A DNA stretch of 64,000 bases from Spizellomyces punctatus DAOM BR117 (taxonomy: Eukaryota): NCBI GenBank assembly GCA_000182565.2, contig KQ257455.1; one strand, 5' to 3'. Below are positions 17,873 to 60,773 of the stretch, in pieces (position 1 is the first letter of the stretch; each line of letters begins with the position of its first letter). Both the position numbers and the translations under genes were made by a program. The notes beneath the pieces are model-generated. The model worked only from the letters and a program-made list of their open reading frames with translations. It was not told the origin of the DNA and ran no database searches.

Positions 17873-20800
17873 ATGTTGGCACGATCCCCAACCCCTCCTC
17901 TACATCCCCATTATGCCTCTGAACAACTCCTAGAGATCCTGGGCTCTAGACACTCCCATCCAGAATCAATTTCAACAAAGCTTCACCCGTTGATTGTGGT
18001 CTGTCTCTATTCGGCCTTTATGTACTTTTGACCCGCCACTGAAATGCACTGGATATGTAGCCTTGTCTCGAAGAATTCCGTCAAACGCCGTCCCTACTTC
18101 GTTTGCCAGCATTCTGGCAGCCTTTCGGGTCTGACTCTGAACAGCGAAATGCTTGCGCGGCATACAATTTCGTATCTGAGTTGGTGAACGTTTTACGGGT
18201 TTCGGGCAGTGAAAAGGAATTGTATTTGAGAACAAATGAGATATTGGAACTACTAGGTGGATTTCAATGCTGTTCTGTCTTCCGAGATTGCTAGAGCCTT
18301 ATGTTTATCTGCTTGTCGCGACCGTGTTTCTTAGCGAAGGATTCGTTATGGCGAGAACTTATTGCTGTATTTCAAGTGCCGCTCATGGAGATCTTGGCCC
18401 TTGATCTCACGAAATGCACTGACAAGCTTCCAAAGGTGCCTTTTACGAGTGCGCGGTGACCCATGCAGCCCATTATAATTTGGTACATTCGTCGTAGCTT
18501 GTTACTCTTCTGAGTATCATTACATATAAAAGCGAGGTGAAATGCACTGCACCGGACTTTGTTGAAATCCTTTGTGATAAGATGTGAGTAAAGGTGGGTT
18601 GAATGGGACTTGGGCCACCAGTGGGATCAGAGTTACATGAGTTATATCGTTGCCAGCATGACCATTGAGACCCTCAACTCGGAGATACTGGGATTATTTT
18701 CCAACCTTTGCGAGTCCGAGGCGTTCCGGAATACCCTCTTATCCGTATCAGTACTACCACGAATATTGCGGCGATTGGTGAAGATGCTGAGCGACGAGGT
18801 TAGCTTGATACGTTTTATGGCTTCCTTGCATAAAACTTATCTAGTTTTGTGACGTAGAACTTGATTCTCGTGATTTACAGCCTCCAGATTCTCGTGCAAC
18901 TTGTTGGATGCACCAGTATTATCCAAAATCTATTTAACGATGCAAATGTTCAAGAAGCATGGAAATTGGTTGTTACTATATTGAGCAAGCAGAATTCCCA
19001 AGAATCGTGCCACGAGGCTGCTATCGACTTGCTAGAATTCATGTTCCGGCAAGAGAAGTTGGTGGGAACTTTGAAAAGGTATGTTCTGGAAACTTGATTG
19101 GCAGGAGGGCTGTATTTTGACGAATTTTAGATATGTGTCAGATACGCAGGTCATACGCAAATTACTGCTGTCTTTGTCGAAAGATGAAGCACTTTTGTCC
19201 CAAGTATGGTAACCTCCAGAGAAATACCGAATTACTCTTTGCATCTCATTAATGCTGGATGTCGTATAAGATGTGCCGTTTTGCGGCGGTGATGATGGAG
19301 AATTGCAAATATAGTCACCAGCTACTAGCAGTAGTACTAGAGTCCGATGCAGTACCGAAGGCGTTGGAGGGCATTGCCCAATATTGTCTTGAGCCGAAAG
19401 AGAAGCTGGTTCGTGGCCGTAACGGGCAACATGATCGGGGAATGCAAATCCGCTCCAGCACCGTCAACGCATGTAGTTTTTTGCGAACCGTACTTATCGC
19501 GGTACTGTACCATAATAGCCTCCTTCATCCTTGGACGGACGCTGGACTAACTCATTCCTATAGCTCGAGAATGAATCTGTAACGCAAGAAGAGTTTGATC
19601 GACTTGCCGACCAGTTTATCCCATCAATACCCCTGTTGCTTGATTGCCTTGCGTCGGCTTTGGAAACCGTCAAGGAAGATCAAATGAACGTCGAACCTGA
19701 GAATCATGAATCAGCCCAGCGGTTGACACAAAAAGAATTGCTAGAACTTGCCCAAACGATTGATGATATCCTTTTGTTATTGATTTTGCTTTCTTTCGAG
19801 TATATAGCTTTTGCAAGTGCCTTGACTCTTCACACTTTTGATTACATTCCCCCGGTTCGATCTAGACGAGGCGGATATGGAAGCAGTTGATACTGAACGG
19901 TGGATATCTATTGCCTTGGAAATTGCCGTGGCGTATCTATGGAGCAATATGAAGAGTGGGGATGCATGTGCTGCTGTTTTTACTCTCGTTACTCACTTGG
20001 GAGAGACCAAGAAAGTGCCGTATGCGCTGGAGGTGAGATGAAAATCAGGAGCCACTTGCTGATGAAGCCGCAATGACCATATCCTTAGTTTCTGTCAAGC
20101 GATGAGGTTGCCAAAACGCTAGCGACAATAATGCGTGAATCTTCCTGCTGTTCTACAATTGAGCGTATCCTGGCTCTGGTCGCACGAACAACTCATTGCC
20201 AACAAATGTCAGTAAGGTTGTTGTAAAGTTGAATCTATTCGGCTGCTAACTTTGACCGCAGGCTAGGTCGTTCTCTGGCTCGACTGAATATATCGAGAGC
20301 AGCTGAAGACTGGCAAGAGAAGGATATCGTAAATAATGCGAATAATGTAGACACAAATCTTGGTCGAGTTACTGCTTGTTCAAAACCAAAGAAAAGATTC
20401 GAGTTAAAAGAAGTGGACGAGACGTTGGCAACCTTGGAAAAGCTGGTAACCTCTTTCAGCCGTATTCAAAACAACGGCGATTGTCCTTAAGACATGGCAA
20501 TTTCAGGAAGAGGAGCTTGCTATCACACGAGAGAACATGCGCAAAGAGATGGAGCTCAAAGATGCGATTTCTCAGCGGAAGATCTCTGTCCACTCGAACA
20601 AATCAGAATTCCTGAAGGTGAGTTAATGGATTGAGACAACCTAGTTCAATTTCTCACAGCTTGGTGGTATCCATAGGCAGAACTGGATCGGTTAACTGTA
20701 TGGTGGTTGGGTGGAGTTTGACTCCCACGTTTAGCATCTTATAAGAGTCTCCTATTCTAGGAATGTTTGGACCAGAAGACATCTGCTCTTGAACAAAGCG

Positions 20801-37292: not shown

Positions 37293-38867
37293 ATGTCGAC
37301 GATCGTCACTCTAGCTGGTGGTAAGGAGCATCTGCCAATTCAACACTGACAACACGAACTTGCGAGATATGGAGAATGGCTCAAACCTGGTGACGGGTGC
37401 AGCAGAGGCTCTTAAACGCCATACATGTTATGATCTACTACCGGTCAGCTACAAAATTATTGTACTTGACACATCTCTATTGGTGAAAAAAGCCTTGGCA
37501 GCTTTACTTCAACATGGTCAGTTCCCTCGTCTACGCACTCTGGACTATAATACCCAGAATACCTCACACAATACGTTTCATGCAGGAGTTCAGTCGGCTC
37601 CGCTCTGGGATTCTTCTGAGCAGCGGTTTGCCGGAATGTTGACTGGTGGGTAGTGGTCTGTAAAATGATACACTCGAACATGCACTGAAAACTTGGCCTT
37701 TTAATTTCGCCTTCAGTAACGGATTTTATCTACCTTATTCGATATTACTATAATCACACGTCCTACGAGTCTGCCATCGAAGAGATTGAACAGCTGCAAA
37801 TAGCCGGGCTCCGAGGTTTATCTTTTGGATTTCTCCCCGTACATGTTTGAGAAACTCATTGATTTGGGCTTTCAGATATCGAGCGAAAAATGGAAGTTCT
37901 ACGTCCTCGAAATATATCTATCCATCCAATGCAAACGTTGTACGAAGGTATGAAAATAATGGGTGCGGCCTGATGTGTGACACTACGGGATATTGATCGT
38001 TCGTTGCTTTAGCAAGTAAACTTCTATTAGATGATCATCTCCACCGCCTTCCGCTCGTTGATCGAAGTGGTGATCAGGAGACAGTGGTATCAGTAGTCAC
38101 CCAGTACAAGATTCTGAAATATCTTGCTGCGAATGTAAGGAGGTGAATACTAGGAAGGCGCATACGTGTGTGAGAACTTGGTGGTCAACACCGGTGCTCA
38201 CAAACCCCTCTGGCAGGCACCTGCCGTTACCAAACTAGATGTCACACTGAAAGATCTTGGCATCGGGACTTTTGAGAATCTTGCCACGGCGACAGCAACA
38301 ACACCACTCATTACAGTACTTAATCTGTTTATAGAACGAAAGATATCCGCCGTGCCCATTGTAGATGACGAAGGTAAGAACGTCTGAGACTGATTGGCCA
38401 AGTCATAGGGGCATTTAATCTGAGTTGTCTGCGCAGGAAATGTGCTGGATGTGTATGAGAAATATGATGTCCTGGTAGGAATCCATGTAGTGTAATGGGA
38501 TTGTCAGCGGAGCAATCCTTCTTGCAGAAGGTCTCACGGTCTTTCGGTTCCTCGAAAACAGATGCTGGCGCGGGAAGGGGCTTACTACGATCTAGAGATG
38601 CCCGTAAGCGAAGCATTAGTGAAGCGATCACCGGTAGGCTTCCGTCCCCATTGCTGCACATATATGTATCCTAAGATTGACGATCAATGCTTATTTCCGC
38701 CCCAGGATTTTGAGGGTATCCACACATGCACTCTATCAGACACATTAGGTCATGTTCTAGAGACCATTCGCCGAATGCCCGTACATCGATTTATTGTTGT
38801 TCAAGATAACAAGTTGAAAGGCGTTGTCTCACTCAGCGATCTATTGGGGTATTTGATTGAACACTGA
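37293..38867 (+). CDS. SNF4: AMPK/SNF1 gamma subunit with CBS domains (first exon uncertain; alternative ATG 37369)
   Basis: CYDLLPVSYKIIVLDTSLLVKKAL, SAPLWDS, FAGMLT, ISAVPIVD, GVVSLSDLL. Confidence 0.95.
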
Positions 38868-39029
38868 GAGAATACAGTTTGTTAAATATCCTTGTATATA
38901 ATGTGTGAATAATACATAATTGGACGTGCGACGTGCTGGGATGTGCGTGAATGGGATTAACGAGTGTTTCGATGTCACAGAGGGGACTCGTGCGCGCGGA
39001 TATGTGCGGCAAGTTTGGCTTGCTTCTCG

Positions 39030-39330
39030 TCATGTCGTCGCAGCAGGCTGAGATCCAGGGACATGCTGATCTCTTTCCAATTGTCTCCGCAGTTCTTCCT
39101 GCCGCTCCAATTCCCTCATATTTTCTTTTTTCTGGGCTCGCCGACCCTCATCTCGTTCAAGACCGATCCTTCGAGTCTTTAGGAATTTGGTGAGTATTTA
39201 AGCACAGTCCAACCCGTTCCTGCACATGACCTACATGAAACTCCAACTCTTGCATGTAATGAACTGCGCCAATAGTCCCCAAGGTCACCACACATGATAT
39301 ACCGAAAGTAATCTTGGATGCTCTTGACAT
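39030..39330 (-). CDS. PET117: Cytochrome c oxidase assembly factor Pet117, 2 exons
   Basis: MSRASKITFGISCVVTLGTIGAVHYMQ...|...GLERDEGRRAQKKKNMRELERQEELR. Confidence 0.88.
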
Positions 39331-39489
39331 TGTTATTTTTCCAGTTGAATTCAAAGTGATCTGCTGTGAAAGAATTGATTTCCGATCACGGGCGCGGGTT
39401 CAGGTTGGTGAGTCAACGTCAGCTTGCGTGAGGGCTTCTCTCCCATTCGTGCATACTGTGAACTTTCACACGGTAATCAACTAGACAAG

Positions 39490-40015
39490 ATGCATCCTCT
39501 TCCCCAATTACCGTCCGTTCTATCTTCATCCCGAACGTCTGCTCCCCAAAACACAGTCCCTATAGATCCCACCCTCATTGATGAAATTGAAAAGACTGCT
39601 GAGCAGGTATCAGCCGATGTCGTTCGGTTTCTCGGTAATTTGAAAACACGAATGGACGAGGTAGCCTAAGCAATGATGTTGCCGACTCGGCTCTTGAAAG
39701 TTGCGGTCTCAACTCTGACTGATGTAGATCACGTCATATACCCATGAATCTGTTGGCGTCAACCGACAAGCTGTAAATTCCCTTTCACATTCAATAGAAG
39801 AATCCATTGACCAAATGACAGGACTGATCAATGCTGTGGACGAATTAAGTCATGATATGACGGCCGTGCAGACGTTAGCCGGAGAAATGTGGGTGTTTAT
39901 CTCGTCACTTTGGGCAACGCGCGTCCGGACCTGATGATGCTTACTTCCAATATAAACCCCCAGCAAGACAATAAAAGATGCACTGGATCGAGTAGAGTCG
40001 ATTATTGGGAAGTAA
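39490..40015 (+). CDS. BORCS6: BLOC-1-related complex subunit 6 (lyspersin/DUF2365)-like, 3 exons
   Basis: PIDPTLIDEIEKTA...AVNSLSHSIEESIDQMTGLINAVDELSHDM...LAGEI|KTIKDALDRVE matches the recalled BORCS6 C-terminal domain pattern. Confidence 0.78.
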
Positions 40016-40058
40016 TGCTCGAATAGAGGCAAAATTGGAGAATACGGAAGGCTTATAA

Positions 40059-40950
40059 GCCTGTTGATTGAAAGCACTTGCTATCATTTTCTTTCCAAAG
40101 AATTGGGCAATCGGCGTGACCCACGTATAGAGCAAGGCAGGTCAGGCCGCAGCCGTACTCTTCGAAGAGGAAAAATGGAGTTGGGTTTTCAATAAATATA
40201 TCCAATCCGCACTCCGCGCACCTCAACCTGTTCTCCAAGTACGTTCGGGGCTCATGTCTCAGCGACCCAACCAGCTCGCAAGGGGATTGCTTGAAGCGCG
40301 AGCCATACCTGAACGCAAAGGGGCAAGCACGTAGCTTTAACGGGGGCCCATCCCAAGGGATTACCACCCGTTCCTTCTTGCTCGCAGTAGTACTCATCCC
40401 AAAGCTGACTGGTAAGCGCGAGTTACAAGTGCCCGTTATCCGCGCAAGACGGTCTAAGCCCACCCAACTTGCATAAGCCCTCCGGCACAGCGACCTAGGA
40501 TCCTCTTTATGTTGTAGTTTGCCACCCGCTGGATGACAAATCCAGTCAAAGAGGACCATAAAATACTGGATGGGGCCGGCCTTTCTGACAGATTATTCCC
40601 GAGGGTCAAATCCCGCCATAATTACCGTCAAAGCGGAGTCTCCACTGCGCAGATGTTCTCGAGCCTTTTGGGCGAGACAATGCACATTAAAGTCTCTACG
40701 CTTCGACACACACTTAGGGTTAGGTTCTCCCAGCGGATCTGCATTTTGGACGAGCCACATCACATGGAGGGCACACGATCCAGTTTGCAAATCTTTTGGT
40801 TGAAGGCCATGGTGGTCAGGCTGTTACGGGTGCACCAACTTGCGAGAGCAACAAAACCGCATATTATGAAAGGCTTATACAGGCTTAGCGGATCTTTTGT
40901 CGAGAACAGGGAGGCGGGATGAACATCCGGAAGTGGGGAAGAGATGAGGA
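40059..40950 (-). ncRNA. Candidate telomerase RNA (TR/TER); ends approximate
   Basis: Template CUAACCCUAA (40723-40714); boundary helix directly 5' of it; pseudoknot 40571-40499; 14-bp core-enclosing helix 40881-40868 with 40483-40470; long stem with a three-way junction 40272-40101; ANANNA (40094-40089) and ACA (40064-40062); upstream TATA. Confidence 0.85.
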
Positions 40951-40975
40951 AAACAGCCAGCGCGACCTGCCGTTG

Positions 40976-40983
40976 TTTTTATA
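40976..40983 (-). promoter_or_regulatory. TATA box of the candidate telomerase RNA
   Basis: TATAAAAA on the minus strand followed by a pyrimidine-rich stretch and no recognisable CDS. Confidence 0.65.
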
Positions 40984-41127
40984 GCGCGTAGAGCTACAAC
41001 CCTGGTGGCTGGCTGTTTCATTTAGGATCCCTGTGACGTAAACTGTTCAAAGTCAGCTCGTCCCCGTGGGAGGATGGGGGAGCATCTTTACACATCTGCA
41101 TCCGCCATCTTCTTTCTTCAAAGTACA

Positions 41128-41941
41128 ATGCCCTCCATTACGAAATACGTTTGGAGTATCTTGCTTGGTCATGTCGGCGAAAATGCGCATCCTCTGCATC
41201 CCGGTGGGTATCTAGTATGTTTTCTTGCCATTGGAGGCACGCACATTGACGCTGTTTGTATGATACATAGCGGTTGTGCATGTTCCAGCTACCCTGTACC
41301 CTGTCGCATTTGCCAGTGATGTTGTAGGGCTTTTTATGGACAGGTAAATATAAATATGTTTTCTGGATTCTTTTCAACTGATGATACAGTGCTGAGCTGG
41401 TCAACTCTACGTTGAAGCAGGTTTCCGCCTGTGCTCTCTTTTGTAACCTCTAGGGGCCTTTACGCATTTAGTTATTATGCAACGGCTGCTTCCCTCATCT
41501 CAACCATCCCAGCTGCATTGACTGGCTTTGCGGAGTTCTTCACCATCAATAAGGAGAGGAGCCCGGAGGCAAACCGGACCGCATATTGGCACGCAGGACT
41601 GAACATTAGTGCTGGTATGTAATGAGTGGTATCATGACTTGCGCGCACTTGGGCATTAAATGACTGGTATCCCATAACCAGTTGCGATTGCATTGTTCAA
41701 CTTCCTTACCAAGCGTCAAACGGTGGATTTTGCCCCTTACAAGTTCAACATCTTCCTGTCAGGTGTAGGACTGACGGGAGTCTTGTACAGCGTGTACCTG
41801 GGCGGAACGCTGGTATACAAACATGGTGTTGGAGTCAGAAGAATGGGGGAAGGAAAAAAGGCCAAGGTTATCGAAGGCAATCCAAACTACGACCTGGACT
41901 CTGAGTTGGGTGTGCCTCAAGTAGGGAAAGGTTGCTGTTGA
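41128..41941 (+). CDS. DUF2231-family membrane protein, multi-exon
   Basis: HPLHP|AVVHVP, PAALTGFAE, WHAGLN, YLGGTLVYKHGVGV. Confidence 0.85.
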
Positions 41942-42061
41942 CTTGAAAACAGGGCTTGAATCGTGCAGATTTCAATAGTCTCGCAAAACTATCCATTTTA
42001 CAATGTGCCCATGTGTAGTAGTTAAAAAAACAATTGACTGCAACTCCTCACCTACCAAATA

Positions 42062-42483
42062 GTGACCGTACACAGCCTGGCAGCACGGCTTTGTCAAGTC
42101 GACGCACTGTCCGATACGGCCGGACAGCAGTGCACGGACAGAGTCCGCGCTTTTGCGTGTCTTCGACTGCACCTTACCACTGCGGGTACTTTTCTGGAGG
42201 GACTGATGGTAGATGAAGGGTCCCGGGCTGTCGTGACCTATAACGAAGTAGAGACAATGCTGGTGAATATCGGTGGTCTAGCGCCCCCTGGCCAGTTTTA
42301 GAAGGTACCGCCCAACATTTGAGATACTTTTCGTCTTGTATCTCGCCCATTGCTGTTGCAAATCAATAAATTGGACATTATGGGCAAGTGGCAGCTCAGA
42401 ATACATAGTCTATTATAATGTGCTCAGAACTACGAGACACCACTGATCCTTCCTGTTCCAAATCGCATTACAAAGTGACGCGA
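42062..42483. repeat. Dispersed repeat copy 1: module A (42062-42139) directly joined to module B (42145-42483)
   Basis: A recurs at about 44066 and 45608; B recurs at 47439-47750 with long identical runs (e.g. cgactgcaccttaccactgcgggtacttttctggagggactgatggtagatgaa). Confidence 0.9.
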
Positions 42484-42523
42484 GTCGAACCTGAATTTTT
42501 GTTTAACACAGCTCCAACTCGCC

Positions 42524-43426
42524 ATGGGCAAACGGAAATCTCGCCCTCACCCCAGTAAAATATCAAAAAGCACAGCGCCTTCCCAACGCTTCCCCACTCT
42601 CTCCTCCCTCACCAGAACGGAGCTCCTTCTGCAAACTTTAAGAACGTCCCAGCCTTCCAATCCCGCACACCCATTCAAACTAAACCAACGGATTCTCCTC
42701 ATTGGCGAAGGCGACTTTTCGTATGCTCGTGCTCTCGCAACTTCCCTTGGCAAAGGCCAGAATATCATCGCAACATCCTTTGACACTAAGCCGGCGCTGA
42801 TACAAAAGTACCCGCATGTGCAGACCATACTGGGTGAACTGGTGTCTTCCGGTGTGACAATTCTTCATAACGTCGACGCAACCGCCCTCACTTCCAACAG
42901 CAGGTTGAGCGCTCTTACGGCACAAAACAAGTTTGATCGTATCGTTTTTCAGTTCCCGCATGTGGGAGGGAGTCAGCAGGCCGATGTTGAGCAAAACAGG
43001 GCCCTCTTATCAAACTTTTTCGCCCAGGCACAGCAATTGATGAATGCTAATGGTGAAATCCACGTAACGCTACGGGATACTCCTTTTTACCGACAGTGGA
43101 GCATTGAGGATCTGGCCTTGAAAGAAGGTTTGGCAATGAAACAGCGTGTTCCGTTCGAAGGGGAGCGGATGCAGGCGCTTGGCTATACACCTCAAAGGAC
43201 CCATCCGGCTGTTCGGGATGCTCCGACCCTTGAGAACGCCTTTGTGCACGTTTTCGAGATGCGGGCCGACAAGCCTGCTACAAAAAAGAAGGAAGATATT
43301 CCATCGCATGGGCTGGCAAGGAACATGAAAACAGCATCAGCGTCGACCATACCCAAAAAGTCGAGGGCCGGTGCCATTGGCAAAAAACCGAAACAGATGC
43401 GCGGAAAAAGGGGAACAAAGAGATGA
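42524..43426 (+). CDS. 25S rRNA uridine-N3 methyltransferase BMT5-like (DUF2431), intronless
   Basis: RILLIGEGDFSYARAL, IATSFD, ILHNVDAT, FDRIVFQFPHVG, GEIHVTL; basic termini. Confidence 0.9.
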   Translation: MGKRKSRPHPSKISKSTAPSQRFPTLSSLTRTELLLQTLRTSQPSNPAHPFKLNQRILLIGEGDFSYARALATSLGKGQNIIATSFDTKPALIQKYPHVQTILGELVSSGVTILHNVDATALTSNSRLSALTAQNKFDRIVFQFPHVGGSQQADVEQNRALLSNFFAQAQQLMNANGEIHVTLRDTPFYRQWSIEDLALKEGLAMKQRVPFEGERMQALGYTPQRTHPAVRDAPTLENAFVHVFEMRADKPATKKKEDIPSHGLARNMKTASASTIPKKSRAGAIGKKPKQMRGKRGTKR

Positions 43427-57382: not shown

Positions 57383-57435
57383 GTTAACGTGAGGGTGGTA
57401 GCCTAACCCTCACCTTAACTTACCCACCCTCACCT
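57383..57435. repeat. Degenerate telomere-like hexamer tract forming a hairpin
   Basis: cctaaccctcaccttaacttacccaccctcaccttatccttacc; GTTAAcGTGAGGGT ... ACCCTCACcTTAAC inverted repeat. Confidence 0.5.
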
Positions 57436-59242: not shown

Positions 59243-59756
59243 GGTATACCGATATCGGTAGTGTAATTAGGTTGTTATAGACTGTGCATACTTGCATATT
59301 TCGAGATTCCCAAATTATATTAACTAGTCGCAGTATTACGAATCCTGTATGAACTATATGCCTCTAACACACCGGCGTAATTAGCCAGTATCACTCACTG
59401 TGCTTAACGCACGGTGTAGTGTTGGCGCGTCTTTTGCCTGTGTACCGTTTACCATCTGACCCTAGTTGCAAGTGGTGAAGGCCTCGCGAGACGGTTGAAA
59501 TTGTCAGCCCGATTACGGCTCCATCATTTGAATCAGTGCTGAAGGGTCACTGCACAACTCCAATGTGATGACCTGCCGATGGGCATTATCTGTGCAGGTA
59601 ACGTTGCTGTCTTCCAACCTTTTTCCAATGTCCATATCGTATTATACACGTGATTAATGGCGACACGCGGCAGATATGCTACTGGTTTTGTCCACCACAG
59701 GCAATGTGTCATGTCGGTAACGAGGGTGTCGTGCCGCACCCTCGTAGCGATCCACC

Positions 59757-60773
59757 ATGACTGTCAAAGAAGAGATCTCCTTGCGAACGGTAACGGCAGC
59801 TGCTGAACGGATACAAGGACATGCTCACAAGACTGCCGTCCTGACCTCGACTACCCTATCGTCGCTCTTTGGAAGAGATCCCTCAACTAATGCGCCACGC
59901 ACACTTCTCTTCAAATGCGAGAACTTTCAACGAGTCGGCGCTTTCAAGTTCCGCGGTGCGTTCAATGCGGTCTCACGGTTATGTCAGGAGACACCTGAAC
60001 TCGCTGCGAAAGGGATTGTCACGCATTCGTCAGGGAACCATGGGCAGGCGGTTGCGTTGGCAGCAAAATTGAATGGCATACCTGCATATGTAGTCATGCC
60101 GAGCAGCGCGCCACAAGTGAAGAAGGACGCCGTTAAAGGGTATGGAGCTACTGTTGTTGAATGCGTACCGACTTTGCAGGCGAGAGAGGACACAGCTGCC
60201 AAGGTTATCAACGAGACTGGAGCGACGTTTATCCATCCTTATAATCACCCGGATGTGATCAGTGGACAGGGGACTCTCGCACTGGAGTTTTTGAAGCAGG
60301 CTGAGGAATTGGGGCATCCTCTTGATGCATTGATTGTACCAGTGGGAGGTGGAGGAATGCTATCGGGGTGTATTACCGCCGCAAAGGCAATCAATCCGAA
60401 TATTCGCATTTTTGCTGCTGAACCATTGGGCGCAAATGACTGTGCCCAATCCTTTCAGTCCAAAACTTTTGTCCCGTCCGTTGCTCCCAAGTCTATTGCG
60501 GATGGCTTGCTGACGAGTTTGGGATCCCTGACATGGCCAATTATTCGAGACAATGTGGAAGACGTACGGACCGTAACGGAGGACAATATCATCAAGGCAA
60601 CGAGGCTGATATGGGAACGAATGAAGATTATTGTTGAACCTAGCGCAGCGGTACCGGCTGCTGTTGCGCTGTTTGATGAGGAGTTCAAGTCATTGGATGG
60701 ATTAAATAACGTGGGTATTGTATTTTCTGGAGGAAATGTCGACATGGAGAAGCTTCCATGGCTTCGATCATAG
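59757..60773 (+). CDS. PLP-dependent serine racemase/threonine dehydratase family enzyme, intronless
   Basis: FKCENFQRVGAFKFRGA, THSSGNHGQA, VPVGGGGM, IVEPS, SGGNVD. Confidence 0.95.
   Translation: MTVKEEISLRTVTAAAERIQGHAHKTAVLTSTTLSSLFGRDPSTNAPRTLLFKCENFQRVGAFKFRGAFNAVSRLCQETPELAAKGIVTHSSGNHGQAVALAAKLNGIPAYVVMPSSAPQVKKDAVKGYGATVVECVPTLQAREDTAAKVINETGATFIHPYNHPDVISGQGTLALEFLKQAEELGHPLDALIVPVGGGGMLSGCITAAKAINPNIRIFAAEPLGANDCAQSFQSKTFVPSVAPKSIADGLLTSLGSLTWPIIRDNVEDVRTVTEDNIIKATRLIWERMKIIVEPSAAVPAAVALFDEEFKSLDGLNNVGIVFSGGNVDMEKLPWLRS

Follow-up and report, generated by a model that had tools for sequence, protein, structure and literature searches.

A putative telomerase-type triple-helix pseudoknot in a candidate telomerase RNA of the chytrid Spizellomyces punctatus

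Telomerase RNAs diverge so fast that each major lineage needs its own discovery. The locus described here raises the question of whether a small, U-rich and interleaved RNA structure in the genome of Spizellomyces punctatus DAOM BR117 (assembly GCA_000182565.2, contig KQ257455.1) is the core of such an RNA. Spizellomyces belongs to the Chytridiomycota, order Spizellomycetales, and the structure occupies positions 40571-40499 on the minus strand of a 64,000-nucleotide (nt) stretch of this contig, the window, whose coordinates are used throughout. Supported by its context, the element is probably the telomerase-type triple-helix pseudoknot of a chytrid telomerase RNA, a reading to which we give a probability of about 0.78. 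The features that define such pseudoknots in the excerpted part of PMC3592445 can be read in its letters, a template-like run lies 145 nt to its 5' side, predicted helices enclose both, and the stretch that carries them is expressed and looks non-coding. A preliminary description, made from the sequence alone, had also taken the element for a telomerase-type pseudoknot, and the evidence below supports it.

Architecture of the pseudoknot and of the RNA around it

Read directly on the minus strand, positions 40571-40499 run AUCCAGU AUUUUAU GGUCCUCUUU G ACUGGAU (UUGUCAUCC AGC GGGUGGCAA) ACUACAACAU AAAGAGGAUC, where the parentheses enclose an inserted hairpin; re-reading gave an exact letter match to the sequence of the preliminary description. 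The first helix, stem 1 (PK1/P2b-like), consists of seven Watson-Crick pairs between 40571-40565 (5' arm, AUCCAGU) and 40546-40540 (3' arm, ACUGGAU), and is worth -8.1 kcal/mol as a duplex and -6.7 kcal/mol as a hairpin. Interleaved with it is stem 2 (PK2/P3-like), whose core joins GGUCCUCUUU (40557-40548) to AAAGAGGAUC (40508-40499) in 10 base pairs (bp), one of them G.U. Nested folding adds the pair G40547.U40509, and the arms then read GGUCCUCUUUG (40547-40557) and UAAAGAGGAUC (40499-40509); because stem 2 reaches 11 bp in this way, no unpaired junction base is left between the two stems. Upstream of stem 2 lies loop 1, AUUUUAU (40558-40564), with five U in 7 nt, which, by comparison with the literature, may enter the major groove of stem 2 and supply the third strand of U.A-U triples there. 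The downstream loop carries the inserted hairpin (40519-40539; 9 bp, loop AGC, -10.4 kcal/mol), followed by a single-stranded A/C-rich remainder, ACUACAACA (40510-40518; five A, three C and one U). The sequence and base counts therefore bear out what had been claimed of the element, namely interleaved stems of 7 and 10 bp (the latter extendable to 11), a U-rich loop 1, a C/A-rich loop 2, a UUU/AAA run at the junction, and a hairpin inserted in the second loop. As stem 1, stem 2 and the inserted hairpin share no base, the stems are compatible on paper and not mutually exclusive.

Nested folding of 91-nt and 750-nt stretches predicted stem 2 with pair probabilities of 0.77-1.0 and the inserted hairpin with 0.98-1.0. 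The 91-nt fold had a z score of -2.47, with one of 200 shuffles as good. In the nested ensemble, the mean probability of being unpaired was 0.73 for the 5' arm of stem 1, 0.77 for loop 1 and 0.64 for the template, and since the 5' arm is mostly unpaired, it would be free to close the pseudoknot.

The template-like run, CCUAACCCUAA (40714-40724, minus strand), is 11 nt long and comprises 1.8 TTAGGG repeats in the CCCTAA register, on the same strand as the pseudoknot. It is the only run of such length in the window. A second CCCTAA-register 9-mer, CCTAACCCT, occurs on the plus strand at 57402-57410 amid imperfect direct repeats (…CCCTCACCTTA…), and the scan of the window found no telomerase-type pseudoknot after it. 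Upstream of the template, the minimum-free-energy structure contains a hairpin (40736-40793, minus strand) with an 8-bp stem, GAUUUGCA/UGCAGAUC, plus 4 bp, an uncertain candidate for a template boundary element. The 9-nt sequence AGAUCCGCU appears twice in the 5' part of the RNA, on the minus strand, at 40897-40889 near the 5' end and at 40742-40734 just upstream of the template.

Further helices, with their pair probabilities, were taken from a long fold of the minus strand from 40934 to 40185. The first core-enclosing helix, of 12 bp, is predicted between 40870-40881 and 40470-40481, with pair probabilities of 0.81-0.94 and its 3' arm 18 nt past the pseudoknot. A second, weaker enclosing helix would pair 40814-40824 with 40487-40495, only 3 nt past the pseudoknot, at 0.62-0.73; in a short fold, 40491-40495 pairs locally with 40574-40578 and thus competes with it. 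Jointly, the two helices are predicted to close the template and the pseudoknot into one loop, so that a core-enclosing helix as expected of a telomerase RNA is present as a 12-bp prediction from one sequence. Finally, a terminal helix between 40902-40916 and 40219-40235 (pair probabilities 0.94-1.0) comprises 15 bp in two segments and is predicted to link both ends of the RNA.

Evidence of expression comes from public sequencing runs. Among the matches listed, 16 runs contained part of 39700-41100, five of which are recorded as RNA, and four runs were compared in detail: X3, X11 and X14 from RNA libraries, and X13 from DNA. The RNA-library contigs, from three studies and at least 99% identical to the window, together span 40185-40934, with X3 covering 40185-40917 (733 nt), X11 covering 40577-40727 and 40733-40909, and X14 covering 40701-40934. 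Stretches of 39000-41400 that the RNA runs left uncovered were given no weight as evidence. The contigs of all three studies end at 40909-40934 without loose ends, and the X13 DNA contig continues past this point; the shared stop is a weak hint that it marks the 5' end of the RNA. A TATA-like box, TATAAAAA (40976-40983, minus strand), lies about 42-49 nt upstream of 40934, the outermost base in any RNA-library contig, and may act as the promoter. Because the template, the pseudoknot and the TATA-like box all lie on the minus strand, the transcript is assigned to that strand. The candidate telomerase RNA gene (40165-40934, minus strand) would thus be about 0.75 kilobases (kb) long, with its 5' end near 40934-40909 and its 3' end at or beyond 40185. 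Just past the end of the RNA contigs, an A-U5-C tract (40170-40176) within CAUUUUUC (40177-40170) could, as a guess, be an Sm-like site or a T5 terminator.

The same contigs show two differences from the window. All three other sources that cover the position (RNA contigs X3 and X11 and DNA contig X13) carry an extra A after 40589 in plus coordinates, which leaves the linker one base shorter in the window, at a point 18 nt upstream of the pseudoknot; the missing A could be a strain difference or an assembly slip. X13, which derives from another organism and is about 92% identical, spans the locus, and in it 58 bases at 41209-41268, upstream of the RNA gene, are swapped for 66 other letters in an otherwise collinear sequence.

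Likeness to known telomerase RNAs and a proposed mechanism

As described in the excerpts of PMC3592445, the pseudoknots of vertebrate and non-yeast fungal telomerase RNAs have no unpaired junction residues, and their upstream loop places four to five uridines opposite U-A pairs of the second helix. Their downstream loop is variable and can bear an extra helix, a conserved one named PK2.1 in Neurospora and other Pezizomycotina, and two core-enclosing helices surround template and pseudoknot. In Aspergillus, three to four U-A.U triples and a possible C-G.U are described (PMC3603654, in excerpt). At the level of sequence, the present element matches the definition published in the available parts of these two papers: it is H-type and lies 3' of a template-like run, its helices are contiguous, its upstream loop is U-rich, and helix 2 contains U-A pairs that could take part in U.A-U triples.

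One formal likeness is to the human and vertebrate P2b/P3 pseudoknot (Theimer et al. 2005, as cited in the excerpts of PMC3592445 and PMC3603654), with which the element shares its strand order: 5' arm of stem 1, U-rich loop, 5' arm of stem 2, 3' arm of stem 1, A-rich loop, 3' arm of stem 2. As in the vertebrate structure in those excerpts, the helices are contiguous, a U-A run at the junction end of stem 2 stands opposite four to five loop uridines, and the pseudoknot lies downstream of a CUAACCCUAA-type template and inside an enclosing helix. The chytrid element differs in the 9-bp hairpin of its downstream loop, for which the vertebrate loop has no conserved helix according to the excerpts of PMC3592445. 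The RNA also has no Rfam-detectable sequence similarity to vertebrate telomerase RNA, and no H/ACA-like 3' domain was seen by eye, a formal search not having been made.

In the downstream loop, the element instead resembles the PK1-PK2-PK2.1 arrangement of Neurospora crassa and other Pezizomycotina, which, in the excerpts of PMC3592445, likewise has two contiguous helices and, in its variable downstream loop, one helix more; two core-enclosing helices are present as well, and the template, specifying TTAGGG, includes UAACCCUAA. In its position in the variable loop, the inserted hairpin has a published counterpart in PK2.1, to which it may be homologous. Calling it lineage-specific, as the preliminary description did, is premature because PK2.1 has been published in the same loop (PMC3592445, in excerpt). 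In contrast to N. crassa, the host is a chytrid and not an ascomycete, and the RNA is about 0.75 kb long compared with 2049 nt (PMC3592445, in excerpt). The Aspergillus CS3/CS4 pseudoknot (PMC3603654, in excerpt) has a U stretch and an A stretch, as does the present one, where three U.A-U triples are possible, followed by a U facing C-G. The Aspergillus RNAs differ in their length of 1.6-2.1 kb and in their template boundary helix, which stands about 2 nt away from the template, and the 3' signals given for them in the same excerpts (an Sm-like site, AUAAGU and GCUAACU) were not found together here. Inspection by eye of the 3' end of the RNA revealed neither AUAAGU with a nearby branch point nor the spliceosomal 3' signals expected of a member of the ascomycete group Pezizomycotina. 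Two other sets of letters, AUAAGC at 40056-40051 and GUACGG at 40158-40153 with CUGAC about 8 nt on, were considered and rejected, having no tie to the RNA end. That the host stands outside Pezizomycotina follows from a neighbouring protein whose best matches are chytrid: the product of the pyridoxal-phosphate (PLP) enzyme open reading frame (ORF) at 59748-60773 shares 97% identity with a Spizellomyces sp. 'palustris' protein, and its next named matches are other chytrids at 61-65%. By analogy, the pseudoknot may work like those of the Pezizomycotina, yet outside that clade.

Comparisons with other fungi are looser. The pseudoknots of Kluyveromyces lactis and Saccharomyces cerevisiae (Shefer 2007; Qiao & Cech 2008, both as cited in the excerpts) are also triple-helix pseudoknots downstream of the template, implicated in catalysis and TERT binding. 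The basidiomycete RNAs of Ustilago and Malassezia (PMC9564094 and PMC12506658, in excerpt) are similarly compact to mid-sized, with a TTAGGG-type template, a U-A-rich P3 stem and a loop 1 that contains U residues. For Ustilaginales and Malassezia, the excerpts of PMC12506658 describe a putative Sm site of AAUUUUU type close to the 3' end, to which CAUUUUUC may be compared here. Unlike the basidiomycete RNAs, which apparently are processed from the mRNA precursor of an upstream gene (PMC9564094 and PMC12506658, in excerpt), the chytrid candidate has a TATA-like box directly upstream.

From these likenesses, a mechanism can be proposed. The element would be the template-proximal pseudoknot of a telomerase RNA of about 0.75 kb in Spizellomycetales, whose minus-strand transcription would begin about 45 nt past the TATA-like box. 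The CCUAACCCUAA template would specify TTAGGG repeats, and the long-range helices would close a loop containing the template and, 145 nt on, the pseudoknot. Within the latter, the 11-bp stem 2 would stack coaxially on the 7-bp stem 1. The loop 1 uridines would occupy the stem 2 major groove, run parallel to the purine strand there, and form about three U.A-U triples on the U48-50/A06-08 pairs and possibly an adjoining U.G-C. Given this parallel course, the triple register that we infer could place U63 on A08-U48, U62 on A07-U49 and U61 on A06-U50, and U60 opposite G05-C51. In the second loop, from which the 9-bp hairpin would branch off, the A/C-rich strand would pass over the minor groove of stem 1. 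By analogy with human, yeast and Neurospora telomerase, the triple helix may serve as a binding site for TERT and help to keep the template-primer duplex in the active site. What the analysis itself establishes is the features of the sequence and how rare they are, the nested helices, the occurrence in RNA libraries and the absence of a coding signal; the formation of stem 1, the triples, the transcribed strand, TERT binding and a function in telomerase are what we infer for this RNA.

Chance, alternative explanations and points against

Several results speak against a telomerase RNA at this locus, and they are best weighed together with the alternatives. The alternative that survives best, although we consider it improbable, is that a different kind of non-coding RNA, or an untranslated region (UTR), is transcribed here, and that the template-like run and the pseudoknot coincide in it by accident. 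By chance alone, 0.39 copies of a 9-mer such as TAACCCTAA are expected in the window, and hence many in a whole genome. Moreover, scans for interleaved, ungapped stems on both strands of the window, with dinucleotide shuffles as controls, found stems of at least 7 and at least 9 bp interleaved at four places, and stems of at least 7 and at least 10 bp at two loci, compared with a mean of 0.37 per shuffle (10 of 30 shuffles held at least one). By itself, the interleaved topology is no more than chance. Other interleaved stem pairs of like size lie at 20224-20307 (plus strand), 51092-51042 (minus) and 32753-32697 (minus), and are presumably products of chance.

The picture changes once the telomerase-type features are included. 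A scan that relaxed the stems to at least 6 and at least 8 bp and demanded a loop 1 containing UUUU and a stem 2 with UUU/AAA at its junction end recovered a single locus in the window, the 40571-40499 pseudoknot and none of the three other pairs, compared with one locus in total in 200 dinucleotide shuffles; its criteria were taken from the literature but were set after the element had been seen. Such a pseudoknot would arise by chance about 0.005 times per 128 kb, and about 1.6e-5 times in the 400 nt that follow a given site on its own strand, which argues against coincidence with the template-like run.

In a crude test of helix length, in which G.U pairs were unlimited and the mean chance helix measured 9-10 bp, helices of at least 12 bp occurred in 13% of shuffles, and the longest uninterrupted run of the terminal helix, 9 bp, was equalled in 43%. 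Because the length test was uninformative, it was replaced by duplex energies, and those of the 12-bp enclosing helix and the terminal helix were below all 247 of 247 same-geometry controls along the same strand; the absolute energies look large, and their rank against the controls alone was used. With none of the 247 controls as stable, and with the enclosing helices bracketing exactly the template and the pseudoknot, an accidental arrangement becomes harder to maintain.

Searches for relatives lent the telomerase reading no further support. A transition-tolerant pattern of the pseudoknot matched only itself in the window, and gave no match in viral contigs and none in metagenome contigs. For the neighbouring BMT5-like gene, 187 pattern-matched stretches were obtained from metagenome contigs, none of which was confirmed by tblastn. 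Among the 40 of 174 substitutions listed between X13 and the window, none falls in the pseudoknot, and the support for every helix comes from one sequence. Rfam (release 15) gave no match in the window at the gathering score, and its telomerase families gave none at E <= 10 in 38000-43000 or in 40150-40950; since the covariance models yielded no telomerase match, the pseudoknot is filed under no Rfam family. The permissive matches that did appear (NPPA-AS1_3, nuoG, sR28, mir-2822 and Rothia-sucC) were all far under their cut-offs and were rejected as noise.

A CR4/5 domain with its P6.1 hairpin was sought by the rule of a 4-bp stem with an NUNGN loop, and the three hairpins found, compared with about 0.8 expected by chance on a rough estimate, include no convincing one. 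The first candidate, CCGU CUUGC GCGG (40440-40452, minus strand), has a 4-bp stem and a 5-nt NUNGN loop and is not established because it is one of three such hairpins where about 0.8 are expected; a second, AUCC CUUG GGAU (40350-40361, minus strand), has a 4-nt loop and is likewise not established. The 3' domain as a whole folds no better than chance (z = 0.03; 51 of 100 shuffles as good). The candidate boundary hairpin at 40793-40736 stops 11 nt before the template, compared with about 2 nt in Aspergilli (PMC3603654, in excerpt). The literature search found no published account of the telomere repeat of Spizellomyces. Finally, the contigs reveal neither the strand nor the true ends of the transcript, and RNA libraries may contain DNA.

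Somewhat less probable still is the possibility that the telomerase RNA is correctly recognized and the pseudoknot misdrawn, with only stem 2 and the inserted hairpin forming and the 7-bp stem 1 a chance complement. Nested folding never predicts stem 1, which has no independent support and as a hairpin is worth just -6.7 kcal/mol, and in the scans a 7-bp complement within 30 nt was not rare. In addition, AUCCAG is present twice around this part of the minus strand (40545-40529 region), and the 3' arm of stem 1 can pair instead with the copy inside the inserted hairpin, giving an alternative hairpin CUGGAU UUGUC AUCCAG of -6.5 kcal/mol. However, this alternative hairpin together with stem 2 reaches -17.2 kcal/mol, compared with -23.1 kcal/mol for the inserted hairpin with stem 2, and its conformer is thus 5.9 kcal/mol weaker than the one drawn. 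The arms of stem 1 also stand where the model demands them: the 3' arm adjoins stem 2, and the 5' arm precedes stem 2 at a distance of 7 nt, spanned by the U-rich loop. In the ensemble, this 5' arm stays largely unpaired. Both observations favour the complete telomerase-type pseudoknot.

Two ORFs overlap the candidate RNA. One, of 168 amino acids (40559-40053), is on the same strand and begins at an AUG inside the pseudoknot, in loop 1/stem 2; the other, of 129 amino acids, is antisense to the RNA, with its plus-strand stop codon at 40920-40922. Pfam gave no significant match for either (the best, at E 0.11, fell below the cut-off), and neither has a relative among 5.8 billion protein clusters in the length ranges searched, although the annotated proteins of the sister species are in that collection. 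Their coding scores are -0.061 and -0.022 bits per codon, whereas every one of the seven ORFs in the window with Pfam support (7/7) scores between +0.048 and +0.202. Both look non-coding, so that the RNA-library contigs over 40185-40934 represent an expressed stretch with apparently no protein product. Hence, although both frames are open, it is very improbable that the transcript is the mRNA of either, with the structure a translational element or meaningless, the more so as the plus-strand stop codon lies at the very end of the RNA contigs and leaves no 3' UTR.

Genomic neighbourhood and meaning for telomerase RNA evolution

The candidate RNA gene is flanked by a BMT5-like methyltransferase gene (42479-43426, plus strand) and by the gene for PET117, a cytochrome c oxidase assembly factor, on the minus strand. 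The latter follows directly downstream (39330-39040), contains an intron, and its exon 1 (39330-39235) matches PF15786 with E 3e-10. No upstream coding gene was seen on the same strand within 1.5 kb. Between the candidate RNA and PET117, intron-like signals occur on the minus strand, with GUAAGC at 39946, GCUAACG at 39879-39873 (62 nt later) and AG near 39836, and no gene model is attached to them. The GUAAGC and GCUAACG pair (39946-39873) sits 240 nt past the end of the RNA contigs and has no tie to the RNA end; together with the AG, it could be an intron in the PET117 5' UTR, or else serve the RNA as a distal processing signal.

Among fungi, telomerase RNAs have been described in Ascomycota and, recently, in some Ustilaginomycetes (PMC12506658, the 2025 Malassezia paper, in excerpt). 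For Lichtheimia, a short, ciliate-like telomerase RNA candidate was proposed in the 2014 genome paper, with no homologue in other basal fungi (PMC4133162). In a literature search with most subscription journals outside its reach, no description of a telomerase RNA from chytrids or other non-Dikarya fungi was found, and chytrids go unmentioned in the available excerpts of the Ustilago telomerase RNA paper and of the animal telomerase RNA paper. We see an even chance that, with the present candidate, a telomerase RNA has been identified for the first time in Chytridiomycota and, more broadly, in any fungus outside the Dikarya. Such an RNA would be compact, at about 0.75 kb, would have a TATA promoter to itself, and would combine a vertebrate-like contiguous triple-helix pseudoknot with two core-enclosing helices and a PK2.1-like helix.

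The pseudoknot itself is ordinary for a telomerase RNA, and the interest lies in its host lineage, in the compact size of the RNA and in a core that is both vertebrate-like and Neurospora-like. Given the position of chytrids close to the base of the fungal tree, their telomerase RNA would reveal which of its features were inherited by animals and Dikarya, currently an open question (PMC8480181 and PMC4993307, in excerpt). Candidates for such inheritance are the contiguous triple-helix pseudoknot, the enclosing helices, the variable-loop helix, the P6.1 domain, and an Sm or H/ACA 3' end. If the reading is true, the contiguous pseudoknot, the enclosing helices and the PK2.1-like helix would date to the base of the fungi or earlier, and the ancestral opisthokont telomerase RNA and its route of biogenesis would become directly testable in a genetically tractable chytrid.

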